From assembly GCA_031270825.1 (NCBI GenBank), contig JAISXH010000032.1, forward strand, positions 3,771-67,770: 64,000 nt of DNA, in the 5' to 3' direction. This document shows, in pieces, positions 2,408 through 63,479 of the stretch; position 1 is the stretch's first letter, and each line of letters begins with the position of its first letter. Both the position numbers and the translations under genes were made by a program. The notes below the pieces were generated by a model, which worked only from the letters and a program-made list of their open reading frames with translations, was not told where the DNA came from and made no database searches. Source of the stretch: Bifidobacteriaceae bacterium (GTDB lineage Bacteria > Actinomycetota > Actinomycetes > Actinomycetales > WQXJ01).

Positions 2408-2488
2408 CCGCAAGATGACCGTCCGCCTGCGTAGTCCGCACTTGCGGAATCAGCACAATCACCGTCCCCGTGCGGAATTCTGCGTGGG
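2408..2488. repeat. 28-29-nt repeat family: one good unit plus degenerate flanking units, filling the HK/RR convergent spacer
   Basis: ...caagatgaccgtccgcctgcgta...ttgcggaatcagcacaatcaccgtccccgtgcggaattc. Same core as the 22304-22450 array, in reverse orientation. Confidence 0.85.
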
Positions 2489-18300: not shown

Positions 18301-21300
18301 TCAGGCCGGGCGCGCCATGGTTAGCCACCTGATTGGCGGTGGTGGTGATCACCATGGATGGGTCCGTCGCATCCCTGGTCTTGAAGACGACCTCTTGCGG
18401 CGCGTCCAGATCCACCACATTTCCCGCCAGGGTATAACGCACGGTGAGGTTCTGATAAGTCGTTGCCGCCGAAGAATAGATCTTGACGTTGTACTTGCCC
18501 TCGTTGCCGGGGGTGGTGTCCTCGGTGATCTCAACCAAGCCAGCCGGAGGCGCCGTCTCATTCCAGTTCAGGCGGACAAGGGCCCCGGTGATCGGGTTCT
18601 CATTGGCGTCCAACAAGGTGACGACGCCAGTGTGATAGTCCTCTGGGTTGCCGGTCTTGCTGGTGGCGGCGAACTTCTGCCCAGTGGAGGTGATCGCGAA
18701 CGACGACTCGGGGCCCGGTTCGTTGTCTGCGGTGAACGTGATCTCCACCGGATAGGTACTCGTGGGCTGGAGGTTGCTGAGGTTCTTGACATAGACTCCA
18801 CCGCTCTGGGCTTTGAGCAGATAGGTCCCGCTCTTGGTGGCGCCGACCCTGACTTGGCTGGAGCAGTTGTAGTTAGTGCCAATCACGCAGATGTAAGACT
18901 GCGCCGTGGTTTCGATCCAATCGGTGCCGTTGTAGTAGATAAAGAACGCTCCGGTGGCAGTGGCCAGGGTTCCCCCGTCGGGCTCCAGCGTCAGCGTCAC
19001 CTCGGTGCCCACCGCCGGGGCGCCAACCAGATCACCGACAGCGTTACGGACCTGCGACTCGGCCCTGACAACGACGTCTGAGGTGGCCTTCACCGTCAGG
19101 GGGCCATTATTGGCCGTGATGGTCGAAGTGGCCTCATCCCAGGCCGGGATGTAGGTGAGTTCGCAAATAATCTCCTCTGGCAACTGCCCGCCACCGGCCG
19201 GGGCCGGCAGGGTCAGGTTGTTGCCGGTGATCGCTGGTGTCAGGTTCTGCTGAGTCTTGGTGTCATAGCAGCGGGTGTCCGCGGCGCCGGTGGCAAGCTT
19301 CCAATTGCCTGCGTTGGTGGCGGTCTGAGCGCCAACACCGGTGGTGGAGATGGTGATGCCTTGGGTGCGGTTGCTAACGGCATGCCCGGTGGTGGAGGGC
19401 ACAAAGGCATTCGCGCTGTTGGTCAGGATCGAATCAGTGGTCTGGGACAGCGGCGGAGAATTGGCGATGTTGGTGAACGACAGGTTCACATTGGCGGCCA
19501 CGCTTCCGAGAGTCCGCGCCTGGATCCTGAGCACAGATCCCGCCACCCCAAGTTCGTAGTCCTCGATTTCGCCCGCGGGCACCCAGGAGGAGGCCGACGG
19601 ATCGGCGGGATCCCGCGAAGTCGCGGTCACGCCCGGATCGTTGGAAATGCGCGCGCGGACCTGAACCGCGGCGATCCCGCCGCTGGGCAGAGTTCCAGTG
19701 GGGGTGTAATCGCAGTACACGTAGCCGTTGACATCAGGCGTGGATGTTTGGCAGGCGACTGCGGTATCGAAGCTGGTGGCCGCTTGCCCCGAGGCCGTCA
19801 GAGACGTCAGCCAGATCTTGACGTGGGACGCCGACACGGCCGCCGCGTCGCCAGCTGCCTTCGCCCTGAACCGATAGGCCTGGTCCTTCACCATGGTGAA
19901 GCCCTGCGCCGGGGCCCAGGTACCGGATGCCGGCTGGCCCTGGCTGTCCAGGGGCACAACGTAGAGGCCGTCATCGGTGTTGTGGGCGGCCGCATGCGGA
20001 TCGTTTACGCCGTCCGGCCAAAGCTGCGCGTTCTCACCCAGACGCAGGTACTGCAGGCCGGCTCGCAGCGGGTTGGCGTAGGGGCCGCTCTGGGCATTGG
20101 TGGTGTGCAACAAAGGCGAGTCGCCCCAAGAGGCCGCCTTGGTGAGGCCGAAGTCGGCCTGCACCACGGCCAGGTCCGTGGTCATGGTCACCTTGGAAAC
20201 AATCGCGGCGCCCCCCGTGGCCGCGAACGGGTCGCCGGTCGCGCCTTGGGCCGTGTTCAGGGCGTCGATGCCGTCGTTGCGGGCGCCGGGGCAGACGTTG
20301 TTTTCGGCTGTGGAGGCGGTGTAGTCGCCCCCGTTGGTAGTGGTGCAGTATGCGGTCAGCGTGTTGTGCGTCCCGCTGGTGCCCGATTCATAGAAGGAGC
20401 CCGCGCTGGCGTAGGTCTGTTGGGCGTTGACCCCGTCGATCTGGGGGCGCTTCACGCGCACCGCGAACTCGGAGCTGGCCGAGTTGAGCAAGGCCGAATA
20501 GGTTCCGTTGGTGGCGGTGACGACTTCGCCGCGCTTGGTCCACTGGTTGGCGCCGGTGTTCTGGAAGATCTCCACGGTGACGTTGGGCACGCCGCCCTCG
20601 CCGGTCCCGATGGTGCCGTCGCCGTTGACGTCGTTGTAGACCGTGCCACTGATGACTGGAGCCATCTGCGCGCCCGCCAGGTCAAGGGCGGCGCCATTGG
20701 CGTTGCCGAGCGAGGTTTGCACCCCGGAGAGCGTGTCCCATCGACGGATCTGGCTGCCGACGCCGGCGGTGTACAGGTTGCCGTCGATAAAGGCCATGCC
20801 GTAGATGTTCTCGTCGCCGGAACTGGCCTGAGTGAACGCTTTCACCAGGGTGTAGGTCCATGGGACGCCCGCCTTGGGGGTGCCGTCCGCGTTTTGGTCC
20901 ACGTTGATCCGTACCAGTGCGTGCCTGGAGTCGTTGGCGGGCTGGCCACCGCTGGTCGAACCGGTCTTGCGCAGGAAGGTGTAGAAGTTGCCTTCGGCGT
21001 CGATCGCCATATCAGACGATGCGTTCCAGTTGCCGCTGGCGGGTTGTCCGGTCATTGCCGTCCACTGCGCGTTGAGTGTGCCTCCTGCGTCGGTGACGCT
21101 ATTCGCCGCTGCCAGGCAGTCAATGGTCCCGGGGCCTTTGTTGAGGCGGTAGATCGCCAGGGCCAAACTGATGGCGGAATTATCGCCGTTCCAGGTCGGA
21201 GCCGCGCCGGTGCCGATCTGATAAAGGTAGCCGTTCTTTTGGTTGATCTCGCCGCTCCACCGATTGGAGAAGTCGCACCAGCTCGCGGTCACTCCGCTCA

Positions 21301-21838
21301 CCGCGGTCGCGTCGTCGAAGTCCCCGAAGTCGGTGTAACTCAAGGTGTTGGCGCCGCCTGAGCCCGCCACGGTGCTCAGCACATGCACTCGCCCGGCCGA
21401 GCCCCAGGTCACCATGTGCCGTGCCTGGTCTTGCTGGCCCCCCGTCGACTGCTTGAACACCGGGCCGACGGCTATGGTCTCGCCCCAGTTGACGGCGGTG
21501 TTCCCGGGGTCGCTGGAATCCCGTTCGAACTTGATTGGCGGGTCCGAAGAGGTAACGCTGGTGATGGCCCCCGGCGAATCCCAGGCGCGGAAGGTCCCGT
21601 AGGCGACGTTCTTGTACCAGAGCTGGTCCTTGGTGAAGACGCCGTCCCAGCCGTTAGAGAACGTGATGGCGTCCGCCTCTTGGGCGCTCATCCAGGTTTG
21701 GACCAGGGTCACCCCCCCGAGAGCGATCGCGCCCGAGACCAGCAACGCGACCGGCTTGACCAGGCGGCGCGGCAGGCGCTTGACAACGCTCGAAACAGAC
21801 AGGGTGGGGGAATTCGTGGCAGTGGAACTGGCGTTCAT
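3362..21838 (-). CDS. Giant (~6,158 aa) LPXTG cell-wall-anchored surface protein made of tandem Ig-like modules (putative adhesin)
   Basis: Single uninterrupted ORF. Preferred start is ATG 21838: AAGGAAG lies 8 nt upstream and the N-terminus MNASS...KRLPRRLVKPVALLVSGAIALGGVTLVQTWMSAQEADA is signal-like. The track start is 21973. N-terminal ~440-aa non-repetitive head, an SdrD-B-like segment (GTVYNDVNGDGTIGTGEGGVPNVTVEIF) and a GEIEDYEL motif. These are followed by tens of ~90-130-aa modules of the pattern S.F..(T/S)....ANG.D...(A/V)TV.(V/L).D..(G/D)N.V. Confidence 0.9.
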   Translation of the reverse strand: MNASSTATNSPTLSVSSVVKRLPRRLVKPVALLVSGAIALGGVTLVQTWMSAQEADAITFSNGWDGVFTKDQLWYKNVAYGTFRAWDSPGAITSVTSSDPPIKFERDSSDPGNTAVNWGETIAVGPVFKQSTGGQQDQARHMVTWGSAGRVHVLSTVAGSGGANTLSYTDFGDFDDATAVSGVTASWCDFSNRWSGEINQKNGYLYQIGTGAAPTWNGDNSAISLALAIYRLNKGPGTIDCLAAANSVTDAGGTLNAQWTAMTGQPASGNWNASSDMAIDAEGNFYTFLRKTGSTSGGQPANDSRHALVRINVDQNADGTPKAGVPWTYTLVKAFTQASSGDENIYGMAFIDGNLYTAGVGSQIRRWDTLSGVQTSLGNANGAALDLAGAQMAPVISGTVYNDVNGDGTIGTGEGGVPNVTVEIFQNTGANQWTKRGEVVTATNGTYSALLNSASSEFAVRVKRPQIDGVNAQQTYASAGSFYESGTSGTHNTLTAYCTTTNGGDYTASTAENNVCPGARNDGIDALNTAQGATGDPFAATGGAAIVSKVTMTTDLAVVQADFGLTKAASWGDSPLLHTTNAQSGPYANPLRAGLQYLRLGENAQLWPDGVNDPHAAAHNTDDGLYVVPLDSQGQPASGTWAPAQGFTMVKDQAYRFRAKAAGDAAAVSASHVKIWLTSLTASGQAATSFDTAVACQTSTPDVNGYVYCDYTPTGTLPSGGIAAVQVRARISNDPGVTATSRDPADPSASSWVPAGEIEDYELGVAGSVLRIQARTLGSVAANVNLSFTNIANSPPLSQTTDSILTNSANAFVPSTTGHAVSNRTQGITISTTGVGAQTATNAGNWKLATGAADTRCYDTKTQQNLTPAITGNNLTLPAPAGGGQLPEEIICELTYIPAWDEATSTITANNGPLTVKATSDVVVRAESQVRNAVGDLVGAPAVGTEVTLTLEPDGGTLATATGAFFIYYNGTDWIETTAQSYICVIGTNYNCSSQVRVGATKSGTYLLKAQSGGVYVKNLSNLQPTSTYPVEITFTADNEPGPESSFAITSTGQKFAATSKTGNPEDYHTGVVTLLDANENPITGALVRLNWNETAPPAGLVEITEDTTPGNEGKYNVKIYSSAATTYQNLTVRYTLAGNVVDLDAPQEVVFKTRDATDPSMVITTTANQVANHGAPGLSAADWGKQTITATLADSAGNPYTSGIARLTASADSALYPGVHFANGGEFSCSVPLDSDSKCPSGVYKLDVYASAAGAKRIVVHYEGEDPAASHNLRDANSPAPPNENRYVTATYIAGPIHLPSTVFVLGDTVTNPGETNPQDDWDKKFNDDSTLYYPNGAPIDRVLGGSFHPGVRVWDLGRNNPIENANVRFVLSNPQSGTCAATFVGASSGQTSSTGKISVEVRSNIATTCVLSAEIQIEGTWQAAPNSPKTLTWKESQVASSDFTVSTATVVANGTDTGTVTVHLRDANGLPITTLAGDISADSVVGQATSGVNVGTFTHSSTTPGEYTATFTGTKVNEDNALGWELSAIVNSQPIALLTPNGNEWAKFEPDTPRAPQSWLLQPAGSVVVGTPTQNVVAHVRDFYGNDVADGTPVTFTIPANTTGNGTAGPSSSIVATTTNGLATLAVSSTDATWDNTPAYHAVTATVGGASIANVKDADTAAATPIRTDGIVRLVFAPDDPVPGQSWLVEPAGTAEANGTTTLQVRAHLRDGFGNNVADGTEVRFSIPTGVSAGSTSGAATVVVGTAGGYADIYLTSTDATWDNTPPYHSITAVIVNGGAQITDIRAADETTQLTRPNNDAQLVYTSGTPCPTESWLLQPAGSVEVGTDTQNVVAHVRDCRGNDVANGTEVTFAIPANTTGNGTAGPSTSIVATTTGGKATLAVSSTDATWDNTPAYHAVSARVGGVPIAAVKDVDTAAATPIRADGIVRLVFEPGPIGPNQSWLVQPSPATALADNQATLTVKARAKDALDNDLNTGTVTFVVPARMTAQSGSTTVSGGASGSTIVADIAAGYATVAYKTTTADSYVITAETAGGDAISAVKNAAETAADGPQDGKVELTFSPLVGADGWLIQPDGTGQKANKSDLYVVRVHAKDSNGNDAADGTPVVFTIPAGVWEGSQEGPRDVATTTTGGYASVTVTSTDATVDNTDPYHVVTAEISGVPVTAVRNAAEATTPIRNSGDVRLVFDPDDPKPEKSWLVQPAGTALANGVETLKVRAHLQDAYENNVADGTQVRFSIPLGVSAGSTSGPATVVQATAGGYADLDLTSTDATWDNTPPYHSITAVIVSSSASIAAVKDVDTSAAPAIRTTGDVRLVYTSGPPCAPDEAWLLQPAGSVEVGATTQNVVAHVRDCSGNNVADGTPVTFTIPANTTGNGTAGPSTSIVANTTNGLATLAVSSTDATGDNTPAYHAVTAKVGGESITAVKDVDTAAASPIRTDGVVRLVFDPGPWVPGSSWLIEPSGSAEANGADTLTVKVRAKDGLGNDVADGVAVTFHIPALTRAVSGGQTYTGPIDVPATTVGGYATIEVSSETANAPGSFYGITAKSGNDSVLAVRSETEALPILRNDGIAHLVFGAGPVIAANSWLVQPDGSATANGTATQLVRVHAKDGSGNDAGAGAIIFHIPSGVSVSGQAGPADIEVNVSAGWAQIAVTSTDATGDNTPPYHAVTAGVKNGGAIATVKSADETTVLLNQDGSNRDQVRLVYVPDVVDPQATADSLTVDQDNHRADGVAAAEAYMIVQDAHGNAIQGNTDGCKFDLIYTGNGPVFVGAPQATPKTITVSDPTGLDGKCTVQIVSYYEGAYPVKGTFKTFESPGPDASRPKANFQNQAPDPEKSEFSVTRTPGNTSPTKAIADGVDSYTVTVVVRDSDNHLIGNYPVDIYASPSGSSNDVLVAQGERSGTGTSLGIATYQIKTTVAGIYRVQAKFGSTAIATAPGGTVKEVPVEFVAGEPDWTKSSVVYSQGDALPDDIGVHTAQVTLRDSHDNLVSGANVFFTLETALGHFVDQNNQNLGQGTQTLTTSDVGVVGVRIKKAGIADEDVTLKIWLGSTTGTPVATHVFNFVAGGPSPANSSFVITQNPASGTPDANGVDYYQGVVTVRDINNIALAGKPVTFEFDSAGVTVTPAGPYTTNSNGQVVVTFTSTTAKAYTVNAGVGGGNARPEDQEIEFEAGPAVASKSTLTTTGSAVLANGADTHDATVVVRDAFDNPVAGQDVFFTIDPGNTSITGPTLSGTTVSSDAAGVAKVTITSNEPGTFAVNGYLGTSAAPTQLVGNSPRSVQFSAGEPDPSKSSRWVVPDTDSDPDVSVVKGDSYRITTEIISIANIKVDKANVRLVIDTGAGVLTVTPQDQTNPQITGEATSDHYGTYYWDVTTNAGGVYQAHVELWATVGATTGYHQVGAPIELRFHGGVVKADHSWLVEPGGSAVADGVAEQSVVVKAFDDSDNPATSGTVRFAVPAGVSVVGGPNPGAGPRNVDVEVQAGEAAIRVVSTVANVNPGTPYYGVTARVTAPQASVGDITTVKDPAGTVIANRNGVVHIVFTPGQPEAANSVLSIPTAAGTPGTKIANGAEAHRAEVVVRDSNSNLVGAGAAQVVFSYKHTDLAGAEVTGSWPAVATNAAGVASRDFTSLVATDWEISATIQGVEVSASPQTATFVAGPVDVRRTLDSFEVDSDTKPTNGMAPAYARVKAQDAQGNPVAGVALVLRLQYPETENGPKFNNALTGPMFVTVTSLATGFASANIFSVWERLGVNVRAELDQQVSANKQVNFASDPASTTTSRFRVDRLTPNGGTANAVADGAEGYRVTVTLRNENGDLLRGSSGTVVITPVDTTAGASASSPTVTTGTDGTATFDFKTTYAGDWKIAVQIGAGAVPREDDPLLTPREWPVVFQPGPPAADHSRLVGPTGGPAQANSSDEQIVLAEIKDAHDNPIPGASVVFTIPTDIRAKVGGSLVAGPTVTVTTSDGSAGGVKGTARLVLASAKTGLFDVTAKIGAADITTGSPARVEFVNTALSLSDSEFTITSTPPKVAGVDSHTAQVVLKDASGNVFTASRDVYFSYRLQNTSAWQEGPKVPTTSAGVAVWSFTQPVAGTYEILAEVGSGTVQGRVPDDQTIRTVVFVHGLASAQHSSFQVSAGKALADDSATHTATLTIRDANDNLVSGESVTFALTNLDNAHFVTTGCDPRTCTKVTSDTGVVEVKFASPDEGTVTVSGSLSGNRLVGTGTALFRNDAAVAAESDWTITPAGPITADGVQQYTAVVNTRDQYHNIASDAEVQFSWSPTVVDGLAITETGRYASNASGVLTVHFTAKKTGTYTVNALIAGEKVPVADKQIVFNSGPISLDPDKTFLTPPNTSAQANGVAEQVVTATVKDANNNPVLDAWVKFQVPANTQLVQGTDAEVQVDANGQARLRLVSTHAGPYSVTAEARKGTSGTYASIVGGSPAAVNFVAGPVDLAHSVISKSPAGPRDATGLPEHSYTVTVELKDAFDNPVKVSGTPIAITLQLYTPDGLTLVQGVAPVVRNVQTDGDGVASTTFTTTRAGIWKGTGGPASGDVVSGSPVSLQFDPTGVSAAASVFDASKNQVLANGTEQHSAWVIAKDANGNPKAGVSVQFTVTEGAADVAGPVTAPASGLVTTCDFYDSGKPAWCTEHGMALVYITSNEPGTFNASATIANQLVTGAPKEVSFDSGPADASQSSYTVTPDSSVQANWPAAVDNPADRYTVTVTVNSANHILVPNAQVRLNGLDSNIKIVSGAATGSTGVPGSGSYGAYTWALYTDVAGTYTADVQVWAGNQWMTIAPAQFTITYKAGDPKADHSWLVEPGGTAVANGTAEQLVVVKAFDSSNNPATSGKVEFHVPAGVSVVGGPSPGAGPRDVEVSIVAGEAGIRVVSTTANTTVGGGSEYYIVTAEISEPAASVGAIATVKDAAGQVIAGRNGQVRLVYVPGTGSGIHSVLTIPTAGQTKVVGGTDEHTARVVVKDENDSPVPGKAVRFEWTTGTQSGPASGATWTTVNAGLSDASGVATYEFAAPNNEAGWVWVKAAFNDGAWINVGGSQTNPVASQTVLGAEFQPDTVDPTETQRSFETYGPAVLNDLATRSWARVVVQDQYGNGIGGLDVTFTLPASQAGTLGTPVFVDGNTPPTSKTFTVRSCERNLTAVPDQCKREGVYTPGLAYVEVVSNYEGAFPVSGTVSQSNTNYDAGHGTVSFESPTGSQGSFTVAQTDPSAPAVVANGIASYTVTATILGQTPTGLKPASGACVAPNLPAHVTVKAPLPNSAGCGAGSFTTDLNGQVSFQIVSTQAGAALIGAKLAGVDLPTEPGGSVFTRQVVFAGGSPSALHSELISPSTPARADDPAGQTVLAVIRDAYGNLAACWAGGVQVTCEVEFDVPAQTRTGQGAAQVTGPARVRAHTSLIDFSAPNPLIASIAASITYYGAVGTHDITATVDGQPIMVADGVVASRGAAEAHITFTDSTPPGRPIVNPSDGGHVDGSVAQEDRADAAAGELEVVVTDENDVVLARCAVDTDGTFDCPIVPKVPDSTELKVVIEDASNNRTDPPVEIITDGIPPGQPVVNPSDGEHVDGTVAEEDLDDAANGDLVVVVTDENGTVVATCPVRADGTFDCPIDPGVPDGTELEIVITDPAGNETQPPVDVVTDGVAPGRPIVDESDGTHVTGEVPEGDRGDAADGELTVVVTDDDGDVVARCQVRPDGTFDCPIAPALPDGETIHVVIVDPAGNESNPVDRVVDAVPPGDPVLNESNGTNVTGHVAEEDLGDAAHGDLSVVVRDEDGDIVTTCPVNVDGTFNCTFNPRLPDGEEVTVEIVDRAGNTNDSEIVIDGVSPGTPVLEPSRGDEVTGFVPSDDLRDAANGDLTVIVTDPDTGLELCRSQVAADGSWSCTFDPAIPDGTIVEVTVIDRANNVSDQVSATIDSTPPILPVPDPSAGETLTGIGEEQGNQITVTDAQGTVLCEAVVGANRAWSCDLNPAAAEGDILTITEEDAAHNVINRPWRIGIPEIALAKPTLCLGDRQVATGLNFQPGETITAVTSGEVRVGQIRANSDGAVVFQWVIPENTPRNVHTLTLRGPLSGVHTVDFSVTCGGVPADIEPPKPAPVKAPTLPFTGADGILGMAGATLGLLLAGLLLLLAAKRRRRTEETS
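3365..3484 (-). other. Sortase sorting signal: LPFTG + hydrophobic segment + KRRRR tail
   Basis: C-terminal 40 aa LPFTGADGILGMAGATLGLLLAGLLLLLAAKRRRRTEETS. LPFTG is encoded at 3470-3484. Confidence 0.9.
3790..5420 (-). repeat. Six tandem ~90-aa Cys-pair modules forming the wall-proximal part of the giant protein
   Basis: Each unit reads PPG.P(V/I).(N/D/E)(P/E)S.G..V.G.V.E.D..DAA.G.L.VVVTD..G.V...C.V..DGTF.C...P..PDG..(L/V).V.I.D.AGN. Confidence 0.85.
13700..17190 (-). repeat. Nine ~129-aa modules arranged as a higher-order repeat (A1 | B1 A2 C1 D1 | B2 A3 C2 D2), period ~1.54 kb
   Basis: Long near-identical DNA stretches, e.g. around 14601, 16141 and 16911 (...ggccggaatcgtgaaggtcac...cgcacatgggcgaccacgttctgggtg...ccaccgaaccagccggctgca...). 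At protein level, the A modules begin SWLLQPAGSV.VG..TQNVVAHVRD and the B modules begin SWLV.PAGTA.ANG..TL.VRAHL.D. Confidence 0.85.
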
Positions 21839-21996
21839 CGACTGACTTCCTTGGGGGTAGGTCCAAATCCCTGGCCGGGCTAGGTCAGAGACTGGTCTGG
21901 TCTTGGCCTGCAGACTGCAGAACAAGGCCATGCCCGGCGGAACCACTCCGCCGTCCCGGGACGAAGCCGGCACGGTGGGGAAGCCCCGACGGGCAC

Positions 21997-22184: not shown

Positions 22185-22302
22185 CCCCCCGGGCAAAGAA
22201 CCCGGCACGCCCCCCGCCTCCCCCACGCGCCCCCGCCAACCAGATCCTCCCCCCCGAACGGCCCCCAAACGGCATCGTTTCGCCCCCTTCGCCCACGTCC
22301 CC
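22185..22302. repeat. Dense cluster of C5-C7 runs (G-runs on the minus strand): potential G-quadruplex / i-motif region
   Basis: At least eight runs of >=4-7 C within ~120 nt (cccccc, ccccc, ccccc, ccccc, ccccccc, ccccc, ccccc, cccc). Confidence 0.5.
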
Positions 22303-22303
22303 A

Positions 22304-22450
22304 CGCAAGGGGACGGTGATCCTGCTGATTCCGCAAGGGGACGGCGATTGTGTTGATTTCCGCAAGGGGACGGCGATTGTGTTGATTTCCGCAAGGGGAC
22401 GGTGATCCCGCCGATTCCGCAAGGGGGACAGTGATTGTGTTGATTCCGCA
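22304..22450 (+). repeat. Five abutting 28-29-nt tandem units of the dispersed repeat family (no spacers)
   Basis: CGCAAGGGGACGGTGATCCTGCTGATTC / CGCAAGGGGACGGCGATTGTGTTGATTTC (x2) / CGCAAGGGGACGGTGATCCCGCCGATTC / CGCAAGGGGGACAGTGATTGTGTTGATTC, followed by CGCAG. Confidence 0.95.
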
Positions 22451-22641: not shown

Positions 22642-23625
22642 CTATAAGGAGAAACAGCGTCTCGGGTGGCGCGCCGCCGACAGAGCGATCCCGTCCAGAA
22701 TGTCATGCTCCGAGGTGACGACGTGCTCCAAGGCTCCGCCATTCGCCTCCACCTCCAGGCGCACCCGCTGGACCACCCGCGACCAGACCAGCGCGCCAGC
22801 GCCGATCACATCGGCCCGGCCCGGATGCATAAAGCCCATGCGAGCACGCTCCTGGCGCGCCGCCTGCCACAACTCCTCGCAGGAACGCAAGACCTGGCCC
22901 ACAGTCAAGACCGCGCCGTCGATCCGTTCCGGCTGGTAGCGCGTCAGCCCCAGGGCATGAGCCGTGATAGTGGTGATCGAGCCGGCCAAGCCGATCAAGG
23001 TGGCCGCCTGGCCCAGCGGCACATGGCCGGCGGCCGCGTCCAAGACCGCGTCCACGGCCCGGATGGCGGCCGCGACCTCATCGCCAGTCGGCGGATCGGA
23101 CCGCAAGTAGCGTTCGGTCACGCGCACACAGCCCACATCCATCGAATAGGCGAAGTCCGGCTCGGCACTCCCCAGGACCAATTCGGTGGACCCGCCGCCC
23201 AGGTCGACGCACAAGTACGGCTGTTCCAGGCCGCTCGGCAAGGCCGTCAGCGCGCCGGCGAAAGATAGACGAGCCTCCTCCAGACCGTCGATCACCTCCG
23301 GCTCGACGCCCAGTTCCGCCCGCACCCCGTCCAGGAAGACATTGCGATTGGCCGCGTCGCGCGTCGCCGACGTGGCCACGAAACGCAGGCTGCCCACCCG
23401 CTCTTGGCGGCAGAGCTGCCCGAACCGCGCCACCGCGCCCAAGGTCCGCTCGAGCGAATCGGGTGCGAACCGGCCCGTCCGGTCCACGTCCTGGCCCAGT
23501 CGCACGATCTCCATCAGCCGGGTGACATCCCGCAGCCGCCCCGCGGCCGGGTCCACATCTGCGATCAGCAGCCGGATCGAATTGGTCCCGCAGTCGATCC
23601 CGGCGGCCCGCACCCGCTCAGCCAC
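22642..23625 (-). CDS. ppx: Exopolyphosphatase / GppA family (Ppx)
   Basis: AAGIDCGTNSIRLLIADV near the N-terminus and DLGGGSTELV. The ORF track start (24027) overlaps the upstream gene by 400 nt. An in-frame GTG at 23625 (VAERVRAAGIDCGTN) is preferred, but the start is not certain. Confidence 0.8.
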   Translation of the reverse strand: MAERVRAAGIDCGTNSIRLLIADVDPAAGRLRDVTRLMEIVRLGQDVDRTGRFAPDSLERTLGAVARFGQLCRQERVGSLRFVATSATRDAANRNVFLDGVRAELGVEPEVIDGLEEARLSFAGALTALPSGLEQPYLCVDLGGGSTELVLGSAEPDFAYSMDVGCVRVTERYLRSDPPTGDEVAAAIRAVDAVLDAAAGHVPLGQAATLIGLAGSITTITAHALGLTRYQPERIDGAVLTVGQVLRSCEELWQAARQERARMGFMHPGRADVIGAGALVWSRVVQRVRLEVEANGGALEHVVTSEHDILDGIALSAARHPRRCFSL

Positions 23626-24391
23626 GCCGCGCCCCCGGGCCGCCCTGGTTCGCGCCTGCGCCCGGCCGCTCCCCGACGCGCGATGCCGTGCCGCCGGGGC
23701 CGCTCCGGTCTCCGCTTCCATTCGGCTGGGCTTGCGCCTCAGGGCGCGATGCCGTCTCCCCCGGGACGCTCTGGCCTCCGCTTCCGTTCGGGTGGGCTTG
23801 GCCTTCAGGGCGCGATGCCGTTCGGCAGGCGCAGCTATCCGGCCGCCACCGATCCGCCACGGCCACGAGCGCCTGGTCTCCGAAGGGGTTGACTCCCGGT
23901 CCAGCGGCCAGGGCATGGGCCGCCAGCGCGTGAAGACACTTGACCCGATCCGGCATGCCCCCGGCCGAGACCCCCTCGATCTCGCTGACCCGGCCGAGTC
24001 TCTCGCGGTCCGCCAAATAGGCGCCATGCGCCCGCCGATAGGCAGCGGCCACAGTCGCGTCTTGGCGGAGCTGGAGATTCATCGCGGCCATCAAGCCTTC
24101 CGATTCCAGGCGTCTAAGAGCGCGGTTAGCGACCGGATGCGTCAAGTAATACAGGGTCGGGAACGGCGCCCCGCCTGGCAGCCGGGGGGCGGTCATAGCA
24201 ACCAATGGGGCACCGCAGACGCAGCGGGCGGCCACCGCCACAATGCCGCGCACCGGGCGGCCCAGTTGTTCGGCGATCGCCCGGATGTCGCCATCCCCGA
24301 CCACCGGATCGGCGCGGTCGCCCTGCGGCACCGGCACGGTCGAAAACTCGGCCTCAGGGTGGGCTGGGTGCGGCGAGACGGCATCGTGCAT
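23618..24391 (-). CDS. DUF501-family protein (Rv1025-like) with repeat-encoded C-terminal tail
   Basis: PFPTLYYLTHP and KCLHALAAHALAAG motifs. ATG 24391 (MHDAVSP) lies 8 nt after the ftsB-like stop. Confidence 0.7.
   Translation of the reverse strand: MHDAVSPHPAHPEAEFSTVPVPQGDRADPVVGDGDIRAIAEQLGRPVRGIVAVAARCVCGAPLVAMTAPRLPGGAPFPTLYYLTHPVANRALRRLESEGLMAAMNLQLRQDATVAAAYRRAHGAYLADRERLGRVSEIEGVSAGGMPDRVKCLHALAAHALAAGPGVNPFGDQALVAVADRWRPDSCACRTASRPEGQAHPNGSGGQSVPGETASRPEAQAQPNGSGDRSGPGGTASRVGERPGAGANQGGPGARRG
23678..23825. repeat. 66-nt tandem repeat (2.2 copies) encoding the DUF501 tail TASRPE(G/A)Q(H/Q)PNGSG...
   Basis: gcgcgatgccg recurs at 23678, 23744 and 23810. Confidence 0.85.
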
Positions 24392-24399
24392 AGGAACTG

Positions 24400-24972
24400 T
24401 CACGGCTGGACGTTTCCGGCCACGACAACGGACTGCCACAACTGGGCGTACCAAGGATCGGGTTGCTCCGAAGGGTCAGGCTGCAACAGGTGCGTCGGCG
24501 CCGCCGGCGAGGGCGCCACGGTCGGCGTGACCGGCGCGTTCTCAGGGTCGGAGACACGATAAGTGCGGTCGCCAGGCATGGCGAAACTGAGGCGTTGGCG
24601 GGCCTGCGCCTTCACATAACTAGGGTCCTGCCAGCGTTTGAGTTGGGCCTCCAACTCCTGGTTGACCTCAGCGGCGGCCTCGACCTGGGCTTTGAGTTCG
24701 GCGGTCTGGAGTTGCTGAGCCATGTACAGACGCAAGGTCGGAAACACCAAAGAGAACGCCAACAGCCCAATCATGACCAGCAGCACAATCTGAAAGCCGA
24801 TCCTCAGGCGGCGACCCGCCTGGATCGCCTGGGCACGCTTCGAGGCCTCGATGCCGTCGGCTTTGGCCCGCAGGCGGCGGGCGCCCGTTGGACGGCGCGC
24901 GCCCGGACCCGAGTTATTCGGCATCCATCCATGATGCCCCACCGACCTGGTCCGGGGCGGTTGGCCGGCCAC
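24400..24972 (-). CDS. ftsB: Septum formation initiator (FtsB/DivIC-like)
   Basis: Single TM segment (IGFQIVLLVMIGLLAFSLVF) followed by a coiled coil (LRLYMAQQLQTAELKAQVEAAAEVNQELEAQLKRWQDPSYV). Sits between eno and DUF501, as in other actinobacteria. Start may be the internal M (MPNNSG, 24924). Confidence 0.75.
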   Translation of the reverse strand: MAGQPPRTRSVGHHGWMPNNSGPGARRPTGARRLRAKADGIEASKRAQAIQAGRRLRIGFQIVLLVMIGLLAFSLVFPTLRLYMAQQLQTAELKAQVEAAAEVNQELEAQLKRWQDPSYVKAQARQRLSFAMPGDRTYRVSDPENAPVTPTVAPSPAAPTHLLQPDPSEQPDPWYAQLWQSVVVAGNVQP

Positions 24973-25123: not shown

Positions 25124-26416
<1,293 letters not shown>

Positions 26417-26518
26417 CTAAAACTCGAAGAAGACGAACCGCTTGTGCGTCAAACATGGTAGCGCGCAGCGATTGGGACGCTCGACCGGCCCCGCCCCGGC
26501 TCGCTGGGCAAGAACCCC

Positions 26519-26646
26519 CCGCCAACTCCGCAAGGGGACGGTGATTGTGCTGACCGGCGCCGCCTCGCGGGCCGGTCCCACCCGCCGCCAGTTCCGCACG
26601 GGGACGATGATTGTGCTTACTGGCGGCGCCTCGCAGCCCGATCCCA
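26519..26646. repeat. ~64-nt tandem duplication, each copy carrying one unit of the 28-29-nt family
   Basis: Copy 1 is ccgccaactCCGCAAGGGGACGGTGATTGTGCTGACcggcgccgcctcgcgggccgg. Copy 2 is ccgccgccagttCCGCACGGGGACGATGATTGTGCTTACtggcggcgcctcgcagcccg. Confidence 0.85.
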
Positions 26647-26661
26647 GCCCATCCCAACGGT

Positions 26662-29492: not shown

Positions 29493-29639
29493 CTGTGAAT
29501 TCTCTCATTGCCACCAGGGCCGCGGTGGGCCACCGCCGCCCGATCGCGCAAACCGAGGTGGCGGCCTTAGCGGGTGCGGGGTCCGGCGTGCGAACAAGAA
29601 GGGCAGGCGCGGCGGGCTGGTTGACGTGGAACCGCAGGC

Positions 29640-29705
29640 CCGCGTCCCCTCGCGTACCTTGCGGAATCAACGCAATCACCGTCCCCCTGCGGAATCAGCA
29701 CAGAT
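29640..29705. repeat. 28-29-nt repeat family, one full unit plus partial flanking units (deoC/cdd spacer)
   Basis: gcgtcccctcgcgtaccttgcggaatcaacgcaatcaccgtccccctgcggaatcagcaca. Confidence 0.85.
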
Positions 29706-29814
29706 CGAATTCGGCGGTTTGCAGCCTTTTCTCCGTCGAGTTCGGCGGAGCGATTCGGCCAGTTTTCATTGGGTGAAATGGGCTGTTTCCGCTAGCCGAT
29801 ATCGGCTGTGTCGG

Positions 29815-32300: not shown

Positions 32301-34802
32301 TCAGTCGAACCCCGCCCCGTGTATGGGGTCGAGCTGCTCTGGGGACTGACGCTCGGCCGGGTCGGCTGTTTGGAGCCCGGCGCGGGCGCCAGTTGCCCAC
32401 CCTGGGCCCACCGCCGGGTCGGCGCCGCCGTAAACGCTTCGAAGCGCCTCGATCTCCCGCCGCCAAAGGCCGGCCGGGACATCCGAGGGCTGGCGCCAAT
32501 CGCCCCTGGGCGACAAGGCTCCGGCTCGCACCACTTTGGGACCGTTCGGCAAGGCCGAACGTTTGAACTGCTGGGAGAAGAACCGCTGATAAAAGACCTC
32601 CAGCCAGTGCAACAACTCCTCCGGCTCGTAGCCCCGGCGGTCCGCGTCTGGCACGCCCTGCGGCCAGCGGCCGCGCTCGGGATCCTCCCACGCCTGGCGC
32701 AGCCGGAAGAAGACCTGACTGGGCGTCAGCCCGAACCTCAGAGTGTAATAGAGCGCGAAATCCTGCAGAGCGTACGGCCCGACCGCCGATTCCGTCGATT
32801 GGATTTCGCCATCTGGGTCCGGGGGCACTAATTCGGGGCTGATCTCAGTGTCAACAACCGCCTGAAGAGTGGCACTCACTCGGTTATCGAACTGGGCCGT
32901 CTTGATAACCCAGCGGATCAAGTATTGGATCAGCGTTTTCGGCACGCCGGCGTTGACGTTGTAATGCGACATCTGGTCGCCCACGCCATACGTACACCAA
33001 CCCAGAGCTAATTCCGACAAATCTCCTGTCCCAAGCACAATTCCGCCTCGGTGATTTGCGAGCCGGAACAAGTAATCGGTCCTCAAACCCGCCTGGACGT
33101 TCTCAAACGTGATGTCGTAATCCGCCCGGCCATGGGCGAACGGATGGTCCAAATCCGCCAGCATCTGGTTAGCCGCAGGCCGAATGTCGAGTTCCTCGAA
33201 GCTCACCCCCAGCGCGGTGGCAAGCGCCGTCGCATTCGCCTTGGTGGCCTCCGTGGTTCCGAATCCCGGCATGGTGTACGCCAGAATGTCGCGCCTGGGC
33301 CGGCCTAACCGATCCATCGCCTGGGCCGCCACGATCACCGCCTGGGAGGAGTCCAACCCGCCCGACAAACCGATCACGATCTTCGGCCGCCCGATCGCTG
33401 CCAGACGTTGGACCAGGGCGCTGACCTGGATGTTATAGGCCTCGTAGCAGTCCTGGTCGAGCCGTTCCGGGTCGTCCGGCACAAACGGGAAACGCGCGAT
33501 CTCGCGCACCAGAACGCTTTGGCCGGCGGCGTCGTCGCTTTCGCCGCCGGTCGCCCCCGCCTGTTGCACGATGCCGTCCGCCCGCTCACCAGCCCCACAT
33601 CTCGCCATGCTCTGGTCACCGCGCAGACGCCCATTCCGCAAGGGGACGGTGATTGTGCTGATTCCGGCATCCTGGGCGGGCGGGAGCGCGGCGGAGACAA
33701 CTTGGAGATCGGCCGTCCGGTGGGCATGGGCGGCGCGGTTGTCGTCGAAGGTGCCCTGGCGCAATCGGTCTTGTCGAATTAACGCAAGATCGATGTCGGC
33801 GAGAATAGTGACGGCGGCATCCGAGAAACGCGGGCCTTCGGCAAGCAATTCGCCACGCTCGTGCACAATTGTCTGGCCGTCCCAGCTAAGGTCTGTCGAG
33901 GACTCTCCTTTCCCGCTGGCAGCATAAACGTAGCCGCATATCAGCTTCGCCGATTGGACTTCGCTGAGGCGGCGGCGCTCGCGCGCCTTCGCCACGGTAA
34001 TAGGGCTTCCGGAGATGTTGGCGATGATTTCGGCGCCGGCCAGCGCGGCCTCCGCGCTCGGCGATATGGGCACCCACAGGTCTTCGCAGATTTCAACACC
34101 GAGCCGGAAGGTCGGCGCTTCGAGGGTCGGTCCGGTTGGAGGCGGCGCCTCGGCGCCTTCGGCCGGGGCGGCGGTGACAGTGGCGGCGCCTTCGGCGGGC
34201 GGGACGACAGCGGGCCGGGCGGCATCGGCGGACGGTGCTGTCGCGGTTCGGGCGGCATCGGCGGACGGTGCTGTCGCGGGCCGGGCGGCATCGGCGGACG
34301 GCGTCACGGCGATATCGAAAAGCTGCTTGGGGCTGACGCGGATGGGCTCGGCCTGACCGGGCAGGTGGATTGTCGCGCTGGCGTCGACACCAGAGGCGAA
34401 TTGACGGTGCTCGTAGAACTCGCGGTAGTTGGGCAGGTAGGACTTGGGCACAGCACCGAGAACTCGGCCGGCCGCGATCACAACCGCGCAGTTGTACAGG
34501 CGGTGGCCGGCGCGCAGCGGCGCTCCTGCCACGATCGCGATTGGCAGGTCGGCGCAGGCCGCCGCGAGTTCGGTCAGCGCTCGCTCAGCCGCGTTGATGA
34601 CGGCCGACTGCATGAACAAATCGTCCAGCGAATAGCCGGAGACGCTGAGTTCAGGGAAGACCGCGAGACTAGCCCCCGCCTGCGCGGCCGCCTGCGCCTG
34701 CGCCGCGATGGCGGCGGCGTTGGCCTGAGGGTCGGCCAGGCGGACTGGGAACGAGCAGGCGGCCACTCTAACGAAACCGGCCGCAGCGGCGTCATAATTC
34801 AC
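32301..34802 (-). CDS. nadE: Glutamine-dependent NAD+ synthetase (CN-hydrolase + NAD synthetase domains) with two insertions
   Basis: FVRVAACSFPV...FPELSVSGY (nitrilase-like) and RFPFVPDDPERLDQDCYEAYNIQVSALVQRL...GLSGGLDSS (synthetase). GTG 34802 (VNYDAAAAGF) is preferred because the track start overlaps pntB. Confidence 0.9.
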   Translation of the reverse strand: MNYDAAAAGFVRVAACSFPVRLADPQANAAAIAAQAQAAAQAGASLAVFPELSVSGYSLDDLFMQSAVINAAERALTELAAACADLPIAIVAGAPLRAGHRLYNCAVVIAAGRVLGAVPKSYLPNYREFYEHRQFASGVDASATIHLPGQAEPIRVSPKQLFDIAVTPSADAARPATAPSADAARTATAPSADAARPAVVPPAEGAATVTAAPAEGAEAPPPTGPTLEAPTFRLGVEICEDLWVPISPSAEAALAGAEIIANISGSPITVAKARERRRLSEVQSAKLICGYVYAASGKGESSTDLSWDGQTIVHERGELLAEGPRFSDAAVTILADIDLALIRQDRLRQGTFDDNRAAHAHRTADLQVVSAALPPAQDAGISTITVPLRNGRLRGDQSMARCGAGERADGIVQQAGATGGESDDAAGQSVLVREIARFPFVPDDPERLDQDCYEAYNIQVSALVQRLAAIGRPKIVIGLSGGLDSSQAVIVAAQAMDRLGRPRRDILAYTMPGFGTTEATKANATALATALGVSFEELDIRPAANQMLADLDHPFAHGRADYDITFENVQAGLRTDYLFRLANHRGGIVLGTGDLSELALGWCTYGVGDQMSHYNVNAGVPKTLIQYLIRWVIKTAQFDNRVSATLQAVVDTEISPELVPPDPDGEIQSTESAVGPYALQDFALYYTLRFGLTPSQVFFRLRQAWEDPERGRWPQGVPDADRRGYEPEELLHWLEVFYQRFFSQQFKRSALPNGPKVVRAGALSPRGDWRQPSDVPAGLWRREIEALRSVYGGADPAVGPGWATGARAGLQTADPAERQSPEQLDPIHGAGFD
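33633..33668. repeat. Unit of the 28-29-nt family lying in frame inside nadE
   Basis: cattCCGCAAGGGGACGGTGATTGTGCTGATTCcggc. Read on the minus strand as ...[11 protein letters not shown]... Confidence 0.9.
34217..34315. repeat. 33-nt tandem repeat x3 inside nadE (encodes PSADAAR(P/T)ATA)
   Basis: gggcggcatcggcggacgg at 34217, 34250 and 34283. Confidence 0.9.
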
Positions 34803-34835
34803 CAACCCAGTTTCCCAGATGCGGCGAACACCAAT

Positions 34836-34862
34836 GTCCGCAAGGGGACGGTGGCTATTGGA
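34836..34862. repeat. Truncated unit of the 28-29-nt family overlapping the pntB stop codon
   Basis: gtCCGCAAGGGGACGGTGgctattgg. The pntB TAG is the reverse complement of 34855-34857. Confidence 0.7.
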
Positions 34863-36309: not shown

Positions 36310-37872
36310 TCAGCCTTTCTGGAACATCTTCAGCATCCGCTGGGTCACAGTGAACCCGCCGAACACGTTGATCGAAGCCAACAAAATCCCCGCCACCGAC
36401 AACACCAAAATCGCGATGTCCGTGCGGCCCTCATGCTGCGACTGGGTGAGCCCCGCCAAAGAGCCCACCACGATAATCCCCGAAATCGCGTTCGTCACGC
36501 TCATCAACGGCGTGTGCAACGAATGGGACACGTTCCCGATCACGTAATACCCCACCACCACCGCCAGCATGAACACCATGAAGTGCCCCAGCAGCCCCGC
36601 CGGCGACACCCAGAACAGAGCCAGCAGCGCCGCCGCGCACACCCCCAGCACCGTCCACGTCACGCGCGGATCCCGCTTCTTCTTGCCCGATGCCGTCTCA
36701 CCTCCCCCAGCGCCCGCCGGCTCGGGCGGCGGGGCGGCCGGCGCCGCGGACACGCTCACCGGCGGCGGCGGCCACGTCACCTCCCCGTCCAACACCACCG
36801 TCATGCCCCGCACCACCACGTCCTCCTGGTCCAACACCAGCTCCCCGTCCTTCCCGGGGGTCGCCAGCTTGAGGAAGTTCACAATGTTCTGCGCGAACAG
36901 GTTCGACGCCTGGGTCGGCATCCGCCCCGCCAGATCCGTGTACCCGATGATCGTCACACCGCCCGCCGTGACCACCAGTTGGTCCGGCTTGGAGCCGGCC
37001 ACGTTCCCGCCCGTCCCGGCCGCCATGTCCACCACCACCGAACCCGGCCGCATCGACGCGACCATCTCCTCGGTCAACAACCGGGGCGCGGTCTTCCCCG
37101 GGATCTGCGCGGTAGTCACCACGATGTCGACGTCCTTGACCTGCTCCGCGTACATCCTCGCCGCCGCCGCAGCGTAATCCTCCGACGCCTCCTTCGCGTA
37201 CCCGTCCGCGGACTCCTGCGACTCCGCCTCCACGCCCACAAAATCCGCGCCCATCGACTCGACCTGCTCCGCGACCGCCGCCCGGATGTCCGTGGCCCGC
37301 ACAATCGCGCCGAGCGCGCGGGCCGCGCCGATCGCCGCCAACCCCGCCACGCCGGCCCCGGACACGAACACCTTCGCCGGCGGGACCTTCCCCGCGGCGG
37401 TCACCTGGCCCGTGAAGAACGAGCCGAACACGTTCGCCGCCTCGATCACCGCCCGATACCCGGCGATATTCGCCATCGAAGAGATCACATCCAACGCCTG
37501 CGCCCTGGAGATCCGCGGCACCGAGTCCATCGCCAACACGGTCACCCCCGCTTTGGAGAGCTTCTTCAACAGCTCCGGGCTCCTAGGCGCCGCGACCAGC
37601 GACACCAGCACCGCGCCTTTGCGCAGCAGCTTGATCTCCGCGTCTGTAGGCGCGTCGATCTTCGTGACGACATCCGCGCCCCAGGCCGCCTGTCTGGACA
37701 CCACATCCGCCCCGGCCTCCACATATTGGGAGTCCGGGAACGACGCCGCCGCGCCCGCGCCTTCCTCCACCGCCACCCCATAACCCAGCTTCACCAGCTG
37801 CGCCACGGACTTCGGAGAAGCCGCCACACGCCGCTCCCCCTTCGCCGACTCCCTCGGCACACCGATCAACAT
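36310..37872 (-). CDS. pntA: NAD(P) transhydrogenase subunit alpha (fused dI + membrane part)
   Basis: [17 protein letters not shown]... alanine-dehydrogenase/PNT fold, [13 protein letters not shown] dinucleotide motif, C-terminal TM helices. Confidence 0.93.
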
Positions 37873-37949: not shown

Positions 37950-38112
37950 GCCGCCGCGAAAACTAAGCACAATCACCGTCCCCCTGCGTAAACAACACAA
38001 TCACCGTCCCCCTGCGTGGCGCACCGTCGGCGGGGCCGGCGGGGGCGCCGCGAAAACTAAGCACAATCACCGTCCCCCTGCGTAATCAACACAATCACCG
38101 TCCCCCTGCGTG
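37950..38112. repeat. 94-nt tandem duplication, each copy holding two abutting units of the 28-29-nt family; overlaps the mazG 3' end
   Basis: gccgcgaaaactaaGCACAATCACCGTCCCCCTGCGTAA(A/T)CAACACAATCACCGTCCCCCTGCGTGG at ~37950-38018 and ~38044-38112. Confidence 0.9.
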
Positions 38113-39564: not shown

Positions 39565-43484
<3,920 letters not shown>

Positions 43485-62501: not shown

Positions 62502-63479
62502 TCAGGCCGCCTCATGACTGCTCCCCTTAGACCCTGCGCCGACGACGGCCAGCGCCGCCGCCAAACGCCCGAAGGCCGCCACGTCCAAGGTCTCGCCACG
62601 AGCCATCGGGTCGATCCCGGCTGCCCGCAAGGCCGCCTCAGCCCGCGCGGATCCGCCTGCCAATCCGGCCAGAGCGGCCCGCAAGGTCTTACGACGAGCG
62701 GCGAAAGCGGCATCGACCACCGCGAAGACCTGGCGACGTTCGGCGCCGGCGGCAGGGGCCGGGCGCCGCTCCAGATAGACCAAGGCCGAGTCGACCCGCG
62801 GCACCGGGAAGAAGGCGCTTCGGGGCACCCGCCCGGCCAATCGCGCCGACGCCCACCAGGCCGCCTTGACGCTCGGGATCCCGTAGACGCGCGAGCCGGG
62901 CGCCGCCACCAGCCGGTCCGCGACCTCCGCCTGGACCATCACCAGCCCCCGCCGGATCGACGCTAATCGCTCCAGGCAGCGCAGCAACACCTTGGTGGCC
63001 ACTCCGTAGGGCAGATTGGCCACCAGTGCCGTCGGCGGGGGTGGGGGGAGCACCGCCAGCTCCAGCGCGTCGGCGGTCAGGACGGTCAGGCGTTCGCCCA
63101 GGCCTGGTGCCCGTAGTTCGGACGATGCCGTGTGGCCACCGCCGCTCGTCCCCTCGCCTGTCGTCGCCCGGGAGTAAGCACAATCACCGTCCCCCTGCGG
63201 ATTTTGGTGGCGGGAGGCGATGGTGGTGGGGAGGGCGGTGGCTAGGAGGGGGTCGATTTCGACTGCGGTCACGGTCATGCCTGCCTCCAGCAATGCCAGA
63301 GTTAGCGAGCCCAGGCCGGGGCCGATTTCTAGGACACGTTCGCCGGGGGCCAAGTGAGCGGCCGCCACGATGCGGCGGACCTGGGCTGGATCGACCATGA
63401 AATTCTGGCCCAGGGCCTTGGCTGGGCGCAGCCCTAGCTCGTTCACCAGGGCGCGGACGTCGGTCGGGGTCAGCAGCAC
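62502..63479 (-). CDS. rsmA: 16S rRNA (adenine1518/1519-N6)-dimethyltransferase with ~35-aa repeat-derived insertion
   Basis: [33 protein letters not shown] start at 63479. Confidence 0.92.
63174..63206. repeat. Unit of the 28-29-nt family lying in frame inside rsmA
   Basis: gtaagcacaatcaccgtccccctgcggatttt. Read as ...[12 protein letters not shown]... Confidence 0.9.

Follow-up and report, generated by a model that had tools for sequence, protein, structure and literature searches.

Small interspersed repeats are common in bacteria, and nearly all of the characterised families that we know of (REP, MITE, RPE, BOX and Correia elements) are palindromic and have a plausible route of mobilisation. 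As outlined in PMC3184786 after Supply et al. (1997), mycobacterial interspersed repetitive units (MIRUs) are ~40-100 bp long, lie between cistrons in the orientation of the operon and carry small ORFs (open reading frames) that overlap the neighbouring stop and start codons. RPEs are palindromic and 100-150 bp long, and in-frame insertion of repeats into genes is known for RPE, BRE and BOX/RUP (PMC3184786). Here, we analysed a repeat family of ~27 nucleotides (nt) in a 64,000-nt stretch of DNA from an uncultured actinobacterium (GenBank assembly GCA_031270825.1, contig JAISXH010000032.1, positions 3,771 to 67,770; hereafter the window). The window has a GC content of 67%, and its proteins are closest to those of metagenome-assembled genomes labelled 'Bifidobacteriaceae bacterium'. 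The family stands out in being asymmetric, only 27 nt long, and dispersed and tandem at once.

Our comparisons show that the family acts at the DNA level. Modules of ~27 nt were gained once this lineage had separated from its closest sequenced relatives and were then multiplied locally by tandem duplication with periods of 28/29, 66 and 94 nt. Units were kept only at harmless places, that is, in variable slots between conserved blocks, surface loops and linkers; several of the slots are those where relatives have extra genes, and the units that lie in proteins are read in whichever stop-free frame results. Collectively, these data make it slightly more probable than not that the repeat is a lineage-restricted, interspersed DNA-level element, which was recently inserted, then amplified in tandem and tolerated only at permissive sites.

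Census and anatomy of the repeat units

A preliminary description, made from the letters of the window, had reported a spacer-less array of five units at 22304-22450 and related copies, about 19 units in all, at nine loci. Tandem Repeats Finder (TRF) bore out the array (period 29, 5.1 copies, 84% matches). The 16-nt core GGGGACGGTGATTGTG, with <=3 mismatches allowed, matches the window 18 times against 1.14 expected, and none of 100 shuffles reached 18; two of the matches (2604 and 17450) are due to chance. We then built a unit profile from the repeat copies and ran it with nhmmer over the window, so that the census covers 64 kb of a single genome; the full units all have E<=2e-7. The profile returned 16 full and 3 partial units in both orientations at those same nine loci, the partials being a half unit (34837-34853, plus strand), a degenerate unit (2415-2433, minus strand) and a 12-nt piece (29691-29702, minus strand). 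Unit density is ~0.3 per kb and the copies are clustered, with none inside the 18.6-kb giant ORF and none between 43.3 and 63.1 kb of the window. The copies are as follows.

2446..2476, minus strand: full unit in the spacer between convergent histidine-kinase and response-regulator genes, 13 nt past the response-regulator stop (nhmmer E 4.7e-10; flanks from Pfam)
2415..2433, minus strand: degenerate unit ACGCAGGCGGACGGTCAT just past the histidine-kinase stop, weak alone (nhmmer E 1.3), adjacent to the full unit and in register with it
22303..22447, plus strand: array of five units, no spacers, 28/29-nt period (TRF; five nhmmer matches, E 2e-9 to 2e-7), antisense, in the variable slot that separates the tRNA-Leu 3' end (22529) from the conserved leader (from ~22130; alignment with the relative L121) of the putative giant adhesin gene
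26514..26650, plus strand: two 66-nt composites, each of one unit (26527-26554 and 26593-26621) and ~38 nt of GC-rich sequence (TRF period 66, 2.1 copies; nhmmer), making up essentially all of the non-conserved part of the phosphomutase/enolase spacer
29663..29702, minus strand: full unit (29663-29693) after a 12-nt partial (29691-29702, E 6, weak alone) in the 322-nt cdd/deoC spacer (nhmmer)
33635..33665, plus strand: full unit in nadE, a minus-strand gene, antisense (nhmmer E 9e-11; translation; alignment of 13 NadE proteins)
34837..34853, plus strand: half unit TCCGCAAGGGGACGGTG adjoining the pntB stop (nhmmer E 0.0016)
37962..38112, minus strand: four units in the mazG/pntA spacer, arranged as two blocks of unit-unit-38 nt with a 94-nt period, units at 37962-38018 and 38056-38112
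43273..43300, minus strand: single unit in mfd, sense (protein alignment; filled/empty DNA alignment with the relative L123)
63171..63201, minus strand: single unit in ksgA/rsmA, sense, in another open frame (translation; gap in 3FUT; homolog comparison)

The basic module of ~27 nt, CGCA-N-GGGGACGGTGAT-TGTG-YTKAYT, is asymmetric and without structure. Sixteen positions of CGCA-N-GGGGACGGTGAT are invariant or differ in only one of 14 distinct units, whereas the three bases that follow GGGGACGGTGAT (TGT or CCT/CCC/TCC/TGC) and the tail G-Y-T-K-A-Y-T are both variable. The 3' end comes in two types: GYTGATT continues into the next unit (CCGCA...), and GCTTA(C/G)T closes an array or a single copy, with GC-rich DNA next to it on the 3' side. 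In the arrays, the units abut head to tail with periods of 28 and 29 nt, in agreement with the earlier remark that no spacers separate them. Two loci have higher-order periods, of 66 nt (twice) at 26514-26650 and of 94 nt (28 + 66, twice) at 37950-38112; the sole sequence intervening between units is a duplicated 38-nt GC-rich block. Copies are 85-100% alike, and their flanks are unrelated to one another.

Filled sites in the window and empty sites in relatives

The closest accessible relatives were reached through enolase and Mfd comparisons. These are L121 (GCA_031281585.1), with an enolase of 97% amino acid (aa) identity and genes of 74-86% nt identity, and L123 (JGI 3300042606), with an Mfd of 84% aa identity and genes mostly of 74-88% nt identity; L122, L107, L108 and L109 are more distant from the window. 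In the 43 kb of L121 and L123 that are collinear with the window, the profile found no unit (best nhmmer E 0.29 and 1.5). The clearest single site is mfd, where the unit is read as RKGTVIPLT at the Mfd N-terminus and adds exactly 27 nt, or 9 aa, relative to nine orthologs. Aligned with the DNA of L123, the gene shows one 27-nt gap that matches the module. This clean pair of a filled and an empty site means that the module entered the conserved mfd gene as one 9-codon piece. At a second site, the mazG/pntA spacer, the window has 244 nt (37888-38131) against 21 nt in L123 (+223 nt). At four further slots, the window and its relatives differ in gene content.

Phosphomutase/eno: window 141 nt (26508-26648, corresponding to the 2 x 66 array); L121, 715-nt PemK toxin-antitoxin cassette
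cdd/deoC: window 318 nt (29496-29813); L121, 1423 nt including deoA
pntB/nadE: window 34 nt (stop, half unit and 12 nt); L123, 3147 nt with GH1 and aldo-keto reductase (AKR) genes
tRNA-Leu 3' end to adhesin leader: window ~400 nt; L121, 6.9 kb including a 6-kb gene beside tRNA-Leu

The deoA gene, which stands between cdd and deoC in L105, L107, L109 and L121, is missing from the window (29493-29814), and so is the AKR gene (plus GH1 in L123) found between pntB and nadE in relatives (34803-34854); pseudogene remnants of deoA or of the AKR gene were not detectable in the window.

The repeat is present at all four junctions that differ in gene content and at one of 13 others (Fisher p = 0.002), an association that is confounded because longer spacers give more room. 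Since the repeats mark gene-loss junctions, we considered that the units could be repair scars, i.e., filler templated at double-strand breaks or deletion junctions from an abundant source, for example the product of a reverse transcriptase or an array of extrachromosomal iterons. The four loci do match differences in deoA, GH1 plus AKR, a toxin-antitoxin pair and an island by tRNA-Leu, a truncated half unit lies exactly at the 34-nt pntB/nadE junction, and scars would account for spacer-less arrays with neither inverted ends nor target duplications. However, the +27 nt in mfd and the +223 nt in mazG/pntA are pure insertions without gene loss, the window holds no reverse transcriptase or plasmid-like gene, and the junction association carries the confounding by spacer length. 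We know of no bacterial pathway that repeatedly inserts the same 27-mer, and we regard scars as quite improbable.

The same comparisons bear on whether the repeats could be an artefact of assembly or of a chimeric metagenomic contig. The window does come from a metagenome-assembled contig, 88 kb long, and array copy numbers drawn from short reads can mislead. Nevertheless, units within arrays differ from each other, the nine unique contexts are collinear with relatives, and reading frames stay open through the ORF-internal copies, so that we give an artefact next to no credence.

With the repeat absent from 43 kb of orthologous DNA, with filled and empty sites, and with higher-order tandem periods, the evidence sides with those proposals of the preliminary description that saw a lineage-specific minisatellite or selfish DNA. 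Its further proposal of an RNA-recognition site fared less well in view of the mixed orientation, the missing structure and the Rfam result given below.

Repeat copies inside genes

The earlier statement that copies also sit inside ORFs was upheld by translation for nadE, mfd and ksgA, each of which reads its copy in a different frame. An alignment of 13 NadE proteins places the nadE unit in the hypervariable linker that joins the CN-hydrolase and NAD-synthase domains. The ksgA unit begins an insert of ~30 aa in a surface loop; Thermus thermophilus KsgA (3FUT) spans this loop with 9 residues, and 9 of 11 homologs lack the insert at that point. In-frame insertion into conserved protein genes at permissive sites is therefore documented for mfd, ksgA and the nadE linker. 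Units that run up against the end of a gene are either trimmed to its stop codon or provide the stop; the mazG stop codon, for instance, is the TGA at 38095-38097 inside the first unit of the adjoining array. Annotation of this lineage calls for caution, as mazG, nadE, mfd and ksgA all hold repeat-derived codons.

Two further features were seen in and near nadE. A coding minisatellite (34210-34301; 33-nt x2.8, PSADAARPATA) lies in a loop of the NadE CN-hydrolase domain. Shortly before the annotated nadE start, the sequence GCATCTGGGA(A/G)ACTGG is conserved in three lineages (window 34780-34830, L108 ~225-262, L123 ~21684-21710). It would encode RIWETGLV, and the differences between lineages fall at synonymous positions only. 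The true nadE start may lie upstream, or the GCATCTGGGA region may be a conserved ribosome-binding or leader element.

Genomic setting and orientation of the copies

According to Pfam, most of the loci lie along a minus-strand housekeeping string, L25 - pth - mfd - hypothetical gene - mazG - pntA - pntB - nadE - pabB - cdd - deoC - phosphomutase - eno - divIC - (DUF501) - ppx - tRNA-Leu - gene for a 6203-aa Big_1/invasin-like surface protein. The window also contains the convergent histidine-kinase/response-regulator pair (0.8-3.2 kb) and ksgA (62.5-63.5 kb). Six loci are intergenic (histidine kinase/response regulator, tRNA-Leu/giant gene, phosphomutase/eno, cdd/deoC, pntB/nadE and mazG/pntA), and Pfam assignments agreed with the five gene boundaries named in the preliminary description, namely, those of the kinase/regulator pair, enolase/phosphomutase, deoC/cdd, pntB/nadE and pntA/mazG.

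Of the nine loci, four run in the sense direction of local transcription, four run antisense to it and one lies between convergent genes, which makes a role at the RNA level unlikely. The units had been described as not forming hairpins, and this proved correct. The fold z-scores of the arrays were +0.81 and +0.42 against shuffled sequence, and units with their flanks, folded as RNA or DNA on either strand, gave z from -0.5 to +1.7; over all folds, most z-scores are positive, the lowest is -1.6 and none is significant. The only inverted pair in the window that involves the repeats is a 7-bp stem ahead of the first unit of the five-unit array (22296-22315). No terminator-like or promoter-like site falls on a unit. 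An Rfam search, which had been suggested at the outset, found nothing overlapping the repeats at E<=0.5, and in the window only two tRNAs reach the gathering score. As had also been noted, five of the six frames of the unit are open, yet the count carries no weight because 39% of shuffled units have at least five open frames. In the light of these data, it is very improbable that the unit is an RNA-level element, such as a terminator, processing site, rut site or small RNA, derived from a terminator-like repeat like the one of L123 described below. Several copies do occupy 3' or intercistronic positions, the antisense strand is C-rich and unstructured, and the L123 motif is predicted to terminate transcription in both directions; against this, half of the oriented loci are sense and half antisense, and the units themselves have neither fold, site nor Rfam family.

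Some features of the flanking sequence were noted in their own right. The single 6203-aa ORF at 3362-21973 (minus strand) has Big_1, Invasin_D3 and Big_6 Ig-like domains and internal repeats of 273-276, 387 and 771 nt; it probably encodes a giant surface adhesin. Its leader of ~150 nt (21974 to ~22130) is conserved with L121. Upstream of eno, ~100 nt (26408-26507) are ~85% identical to L121, far above the surrounding spacer, with the repeat array ending exactly at the edge of this block, which is probably the eno promoter or 5'-untranslated region. Two RNA predictions are probably false positives: a 92-nt tRNA-Gly called by ARAGORN inside the giant ORF (16986-17077, plus strand), which lacks Rfam support, and a far sub-threshold Rfam match to Ysr141 in mfd (41031-41217, plus strand).

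Comparison with described repeat classes and distribution beyond the window

The family is a small interspersed bacterial repeat that lacks the defining properties of CRISPR, REP/BIME, MITE and MIRU elements. Readings as iterons, dif/Xer sites, promoters or terminators, CRISPR, REPs and MITEs were rejected on symmetry, spacing and context.

CRISPR arrays resemble the family in the 28-29-nt unit and in the direct-repeat arrangement. The units of the window, in contrast, have neither spacers nor a repeat stem, single copies are dispersed and lie also inside genes, and a Pfam scan of 32 ORFs that flank the loci found no Cas protein. REP/BIME elements are likewise short, abundant, mostly extragenic, species-specific and often clustered. 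REPs, however, are imperfect palindromes folding into stem-loops, as the units here are not, and are not normally found inside ORFs, unlike these units; no gene for RAYT (TnpA-REP) lies within the window. As for MITEs, an alignment of 12 copies with their flanks revealed no terminal inverted repeats, and the perfect 9-bp inverted repeat that flanks the copy at 26594 is specific to that locus. There is also no consistent direct repeat around the copies that would represent a target-site duplication, and the +27-nt alignment of mfd, with its diverged flanks, shows none that is recognisable. Together with the lack of a transposase in the window, this speaks against the caveat, raised in the preliminary description, that the units might be the ends of an insertion sequence (IS) or MITE. 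Hence, although 28-29 nt is the length of many CRISPR repeats and the copies are dispersed, it is extremely unlikely that the units are remnants of a known class, be it a degenerate CRISPR array or IS/MITE ends: within the window there are no spacers, no palindromic stem and no cas genes among the scanned flanking ORFs, and no longer element lies between copies that lack inverted repeats and a consistent target duplication.

Judged by the outline of MIRUs in PMC3184786, the family is similar in its actinobacterial host, in forming spacer-less tandem direct repeats at many dispersed loci, in occupying mostly intercistronic spacers of housekeeping genes and in being absent from the orthologous sites of relatives. 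The basic unit of 27-29 nt is shorter than a MIRU, as had been stated; only the composites reach 66 and 94 nt, and those of 66 nt (two loci) fall in the size range of that outline. By the same outline, the family differs in a period that is not a multiple of 3, in occurring in both orientations, in its copies inside genes and in sequence, for which no similarity was seen; small ORFs bridging neighbouring stop and start codons across the arrays are absent. A second family of the window (66 nt, core GACGGCATCG) is more MIRU-like in these terms than the 27-nt family.

RPEs share the in-frame insertion into variable surface regions of housekeeping proteins (here Mfd, KsgA and NadE, with the C-terminus of MazG replaced), and such insertions are compatible with selfish DNA that the protein tolerates. 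The insert described here, however, has 27 nt (9 aa), lacks dyad symmetry and forms tandem arrays, whereas RPEs are not tandem and belong to an unrelated lineage. Finally, the uptake sequences of Haemophilus (USS) and Neisseria (DUS) also have a short asymmetric core within a motif of ~29 nt and occur in both orientations, in coding and noncoding DNA; an inverted terminator pair in L123, which has a 9-mer in common with the window unit, likewise resembles them. In contrast to the units of the window, they are not tandem, arise mainly by point mutation and uptake bias rather than by whole-module insertion, and have a genome-wide density near 1 per kb, compared with ~0.3 units per kb here. No competence genes lie within the window.

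Searches elsewhere did not extend the family. A 22-nt pattern had 0 matches in JGI metagenome contigs, and a two-core tandem pattern found 11 arrays in JGI metagenomes, all unrelated, one of them on a contig that looks haloarchaeal by its acidic proteins and 70% GC. IMG/VR yielded no copy, and neither did blastn against PLSDB and phage genomes; translated arrays had no match at E<=10 in the protein database, and a literature string search did not find the sequence. In the GTDB genome collection (596 Gb), none of the matches listed for the bare 16-mer core, a pattern short enough for chance matches, carries the extended motif.

Other repeats in the window and its relatives

Alignment of the window with L123 shows many further lineage-specific tandem expansions, among them a 66-nt x3 array in an ABC-F linker, 30/60-nt repeats at the glmU 3' end, 15-nt and 6-nt arrays and a 110-nt duplication of the pth/mfd junction. 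This genome is thus generally prone to local duplication. The coding minisatellites at 47862-48016 (30/60-nt, glmU 3' end), 50677-50731 (15-nt x3.7) and 52467-52533 ((CAGCGG)x10) lie in segments without an L123 counterpart. In the duplication at 43487-43643, the first 37 nt of mfd and the GTGA stop/start overlap are present twice. As a result, a 37-codon ORF is formed; it overlaps the pth stop with its start codon and the real mfd start with its stop codon, an arrangement of the kind that preserves translational coupling.

The second dispersed family has the core G(A/G)GACGGCATCG(G) and lies at 23678-23821, 53276-53473, 30896-30931, 36683-36718 and 45669-45679; its motif GRCGGCATCGG occurs 17 times in the window against 0.47 expected. 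Its 66-nt tandem units at the DUF501/ppx junction add 122 nt relative to L121, where the two genes overlap, and are translated as a C-terminal extension of the ORF at 23618-24454. Units of 66 nt are also present in the ABC-F linker (+140 nt compared with L123), and copies of ~36 nt lie in the interdomain linkers of pabB and pntA. The pabB linker of L121 holds an 18-nt x12 array with the motif of this family.

The relatives have repeats of their own. L108 carries a 31-nt family, GTGCCCGCTTTTGCA...TCGA, which is spacer-less, tandem and inverted, as well as a further family, AAAGACAAATTCCCTGGATGTCGA, in the cdd/phosphomutase spacer; L108 repeat families lie at 2965-3310, 111-136 and 6410-6641. 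L109 has a 157-nt array and L105 a 27-nt array. L123 and L108 both carry GGGGACGGTACCT(A)TTTC, which has only the 9-mer GGGGACGGT in common with the window unit. Between pntB and GH1, which converge in L123, an inverted pair of this repeat forms a perfect 24-bp hairpin with A and U runs beside it (dG -56.6 kcal/mol, z -11), a predicted bidirectional terminator. The nadE linker of L123 contains three direct in-frame copies of the relatives' repeat (63-nt period, NGDGTYF). Copies of the form GGGGACGGTACCTATTTC(CGG) lie at 18540-18615 and 22844-23000 of L123 and at 5783-5875 of L108, and a single GGGGACGGTACCTATTTC copy in L108 stands at the base of a structured element after pabB (z -5.2). Profiles of the window family and of the L108/L123 repeats gave no significant cross-match (best E 7.7 and 1.5). 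Homology between them is therefore unsupported, and we treat a common origin as a lead, not as a finding.

These observations bear on the main rival to our preferred explanation, to which the far stronger conservation of the core than of the tail gives rise: the unit could be under selection as a site recognised in trans, either by a DNA-binding protein (nucleoid-associated, regulatory or a recombinase) or as an uptake-signal-like sequence. Its many copies would then be kept for the sake of this recognition, and arrays would provide multivalent binding. An invariant, asymmetric core of 16-17 nt with a variable tail and the orientation-independent behaviour of the unit at the DNA level would suit such a site, and so would the array periods of 28-31 nt here and in L108's own family. 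The L123/L108 repeat opens with the same 9-mer, and the terminator pair and nadE copies of L123 recall the 'dialects' of uptake sequences. Nonetheless, profiles of the families do not match each other significantly, and the copies lie in ORFs, between convergent genes and after stops, without obvious regulatory logic. Near-identity over 27 nt and insertion of whole modules resemble copying more than convergent evolution of sites, tandem arrays are not typical of uptake sequences, and the window offers no candidate binding protein or competence gene. On balance, a recognition site appears unlikely, although it deserves real weight.

Discussion

The repeat described here is most likely harmless selfish or filler DNA, unusual yet not unprecedented. 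Within our preferred reading of a recently inserted and locally amplified DNA-level repeat, the units would carry no dedicated cellular function and yield no RNA product. The module would not encode its own transposition and would spread to further sites either through copying that depends on recombination or repair or with the help of an enzyme whose gene lies elsewhere; we infer spread by copying because the unit has no inverted ends, target duplication, structure or coding capacity.

Several points weigh against this reading. The contrast in conservation between core and tail could reflect selection for recognition instead of recent origin. The window, which is 64 kb of one genome and the whole evidence base, revealed no mobilising enzyme, and the units show neither inverted ends nor target duplications that would account for their dispersal. 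The link to gene-loss junctions could mean that the units actively take part in deletion or repair. Moreover, the nadE-linker unit and the pntB half unit coincide with GGGGACGG/CCGTCCCC sequences at the same places in L123, which suggests that these two may be older than the clearly new insertions.

The dispersal step also raises the question of whether the 27-nt module is itself mobile, a non-palindromic element without inverted ends or target duplications that would insert in either orientation by an undescribed mechanism and have lineage 'dialects' such as GGGGACGGTACCTATTTC of L123/L108. Conceivable routes would be a reverse transcriptase or repair polymerase that adds templated repeats at breaks, or a recombinase acting in trans with the GGGGACGG core as its recognition sequence. 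To our knowledge, no bacterial mobile DNA described so far is as small as such a unit would be. We hold a mobile module of this kind to be rather unlikely.

The units are candidate variable-number tandem repeat markers for strain typing in this lineage. Should their dispersal prove enzymatic, the family would point to a mode of insertion not described before; should it prove recombinational, the family would be a clear case of minisatellite-like DNA reshaping the spacers and the protein loops of an uncultured lineage of actinobacteria.

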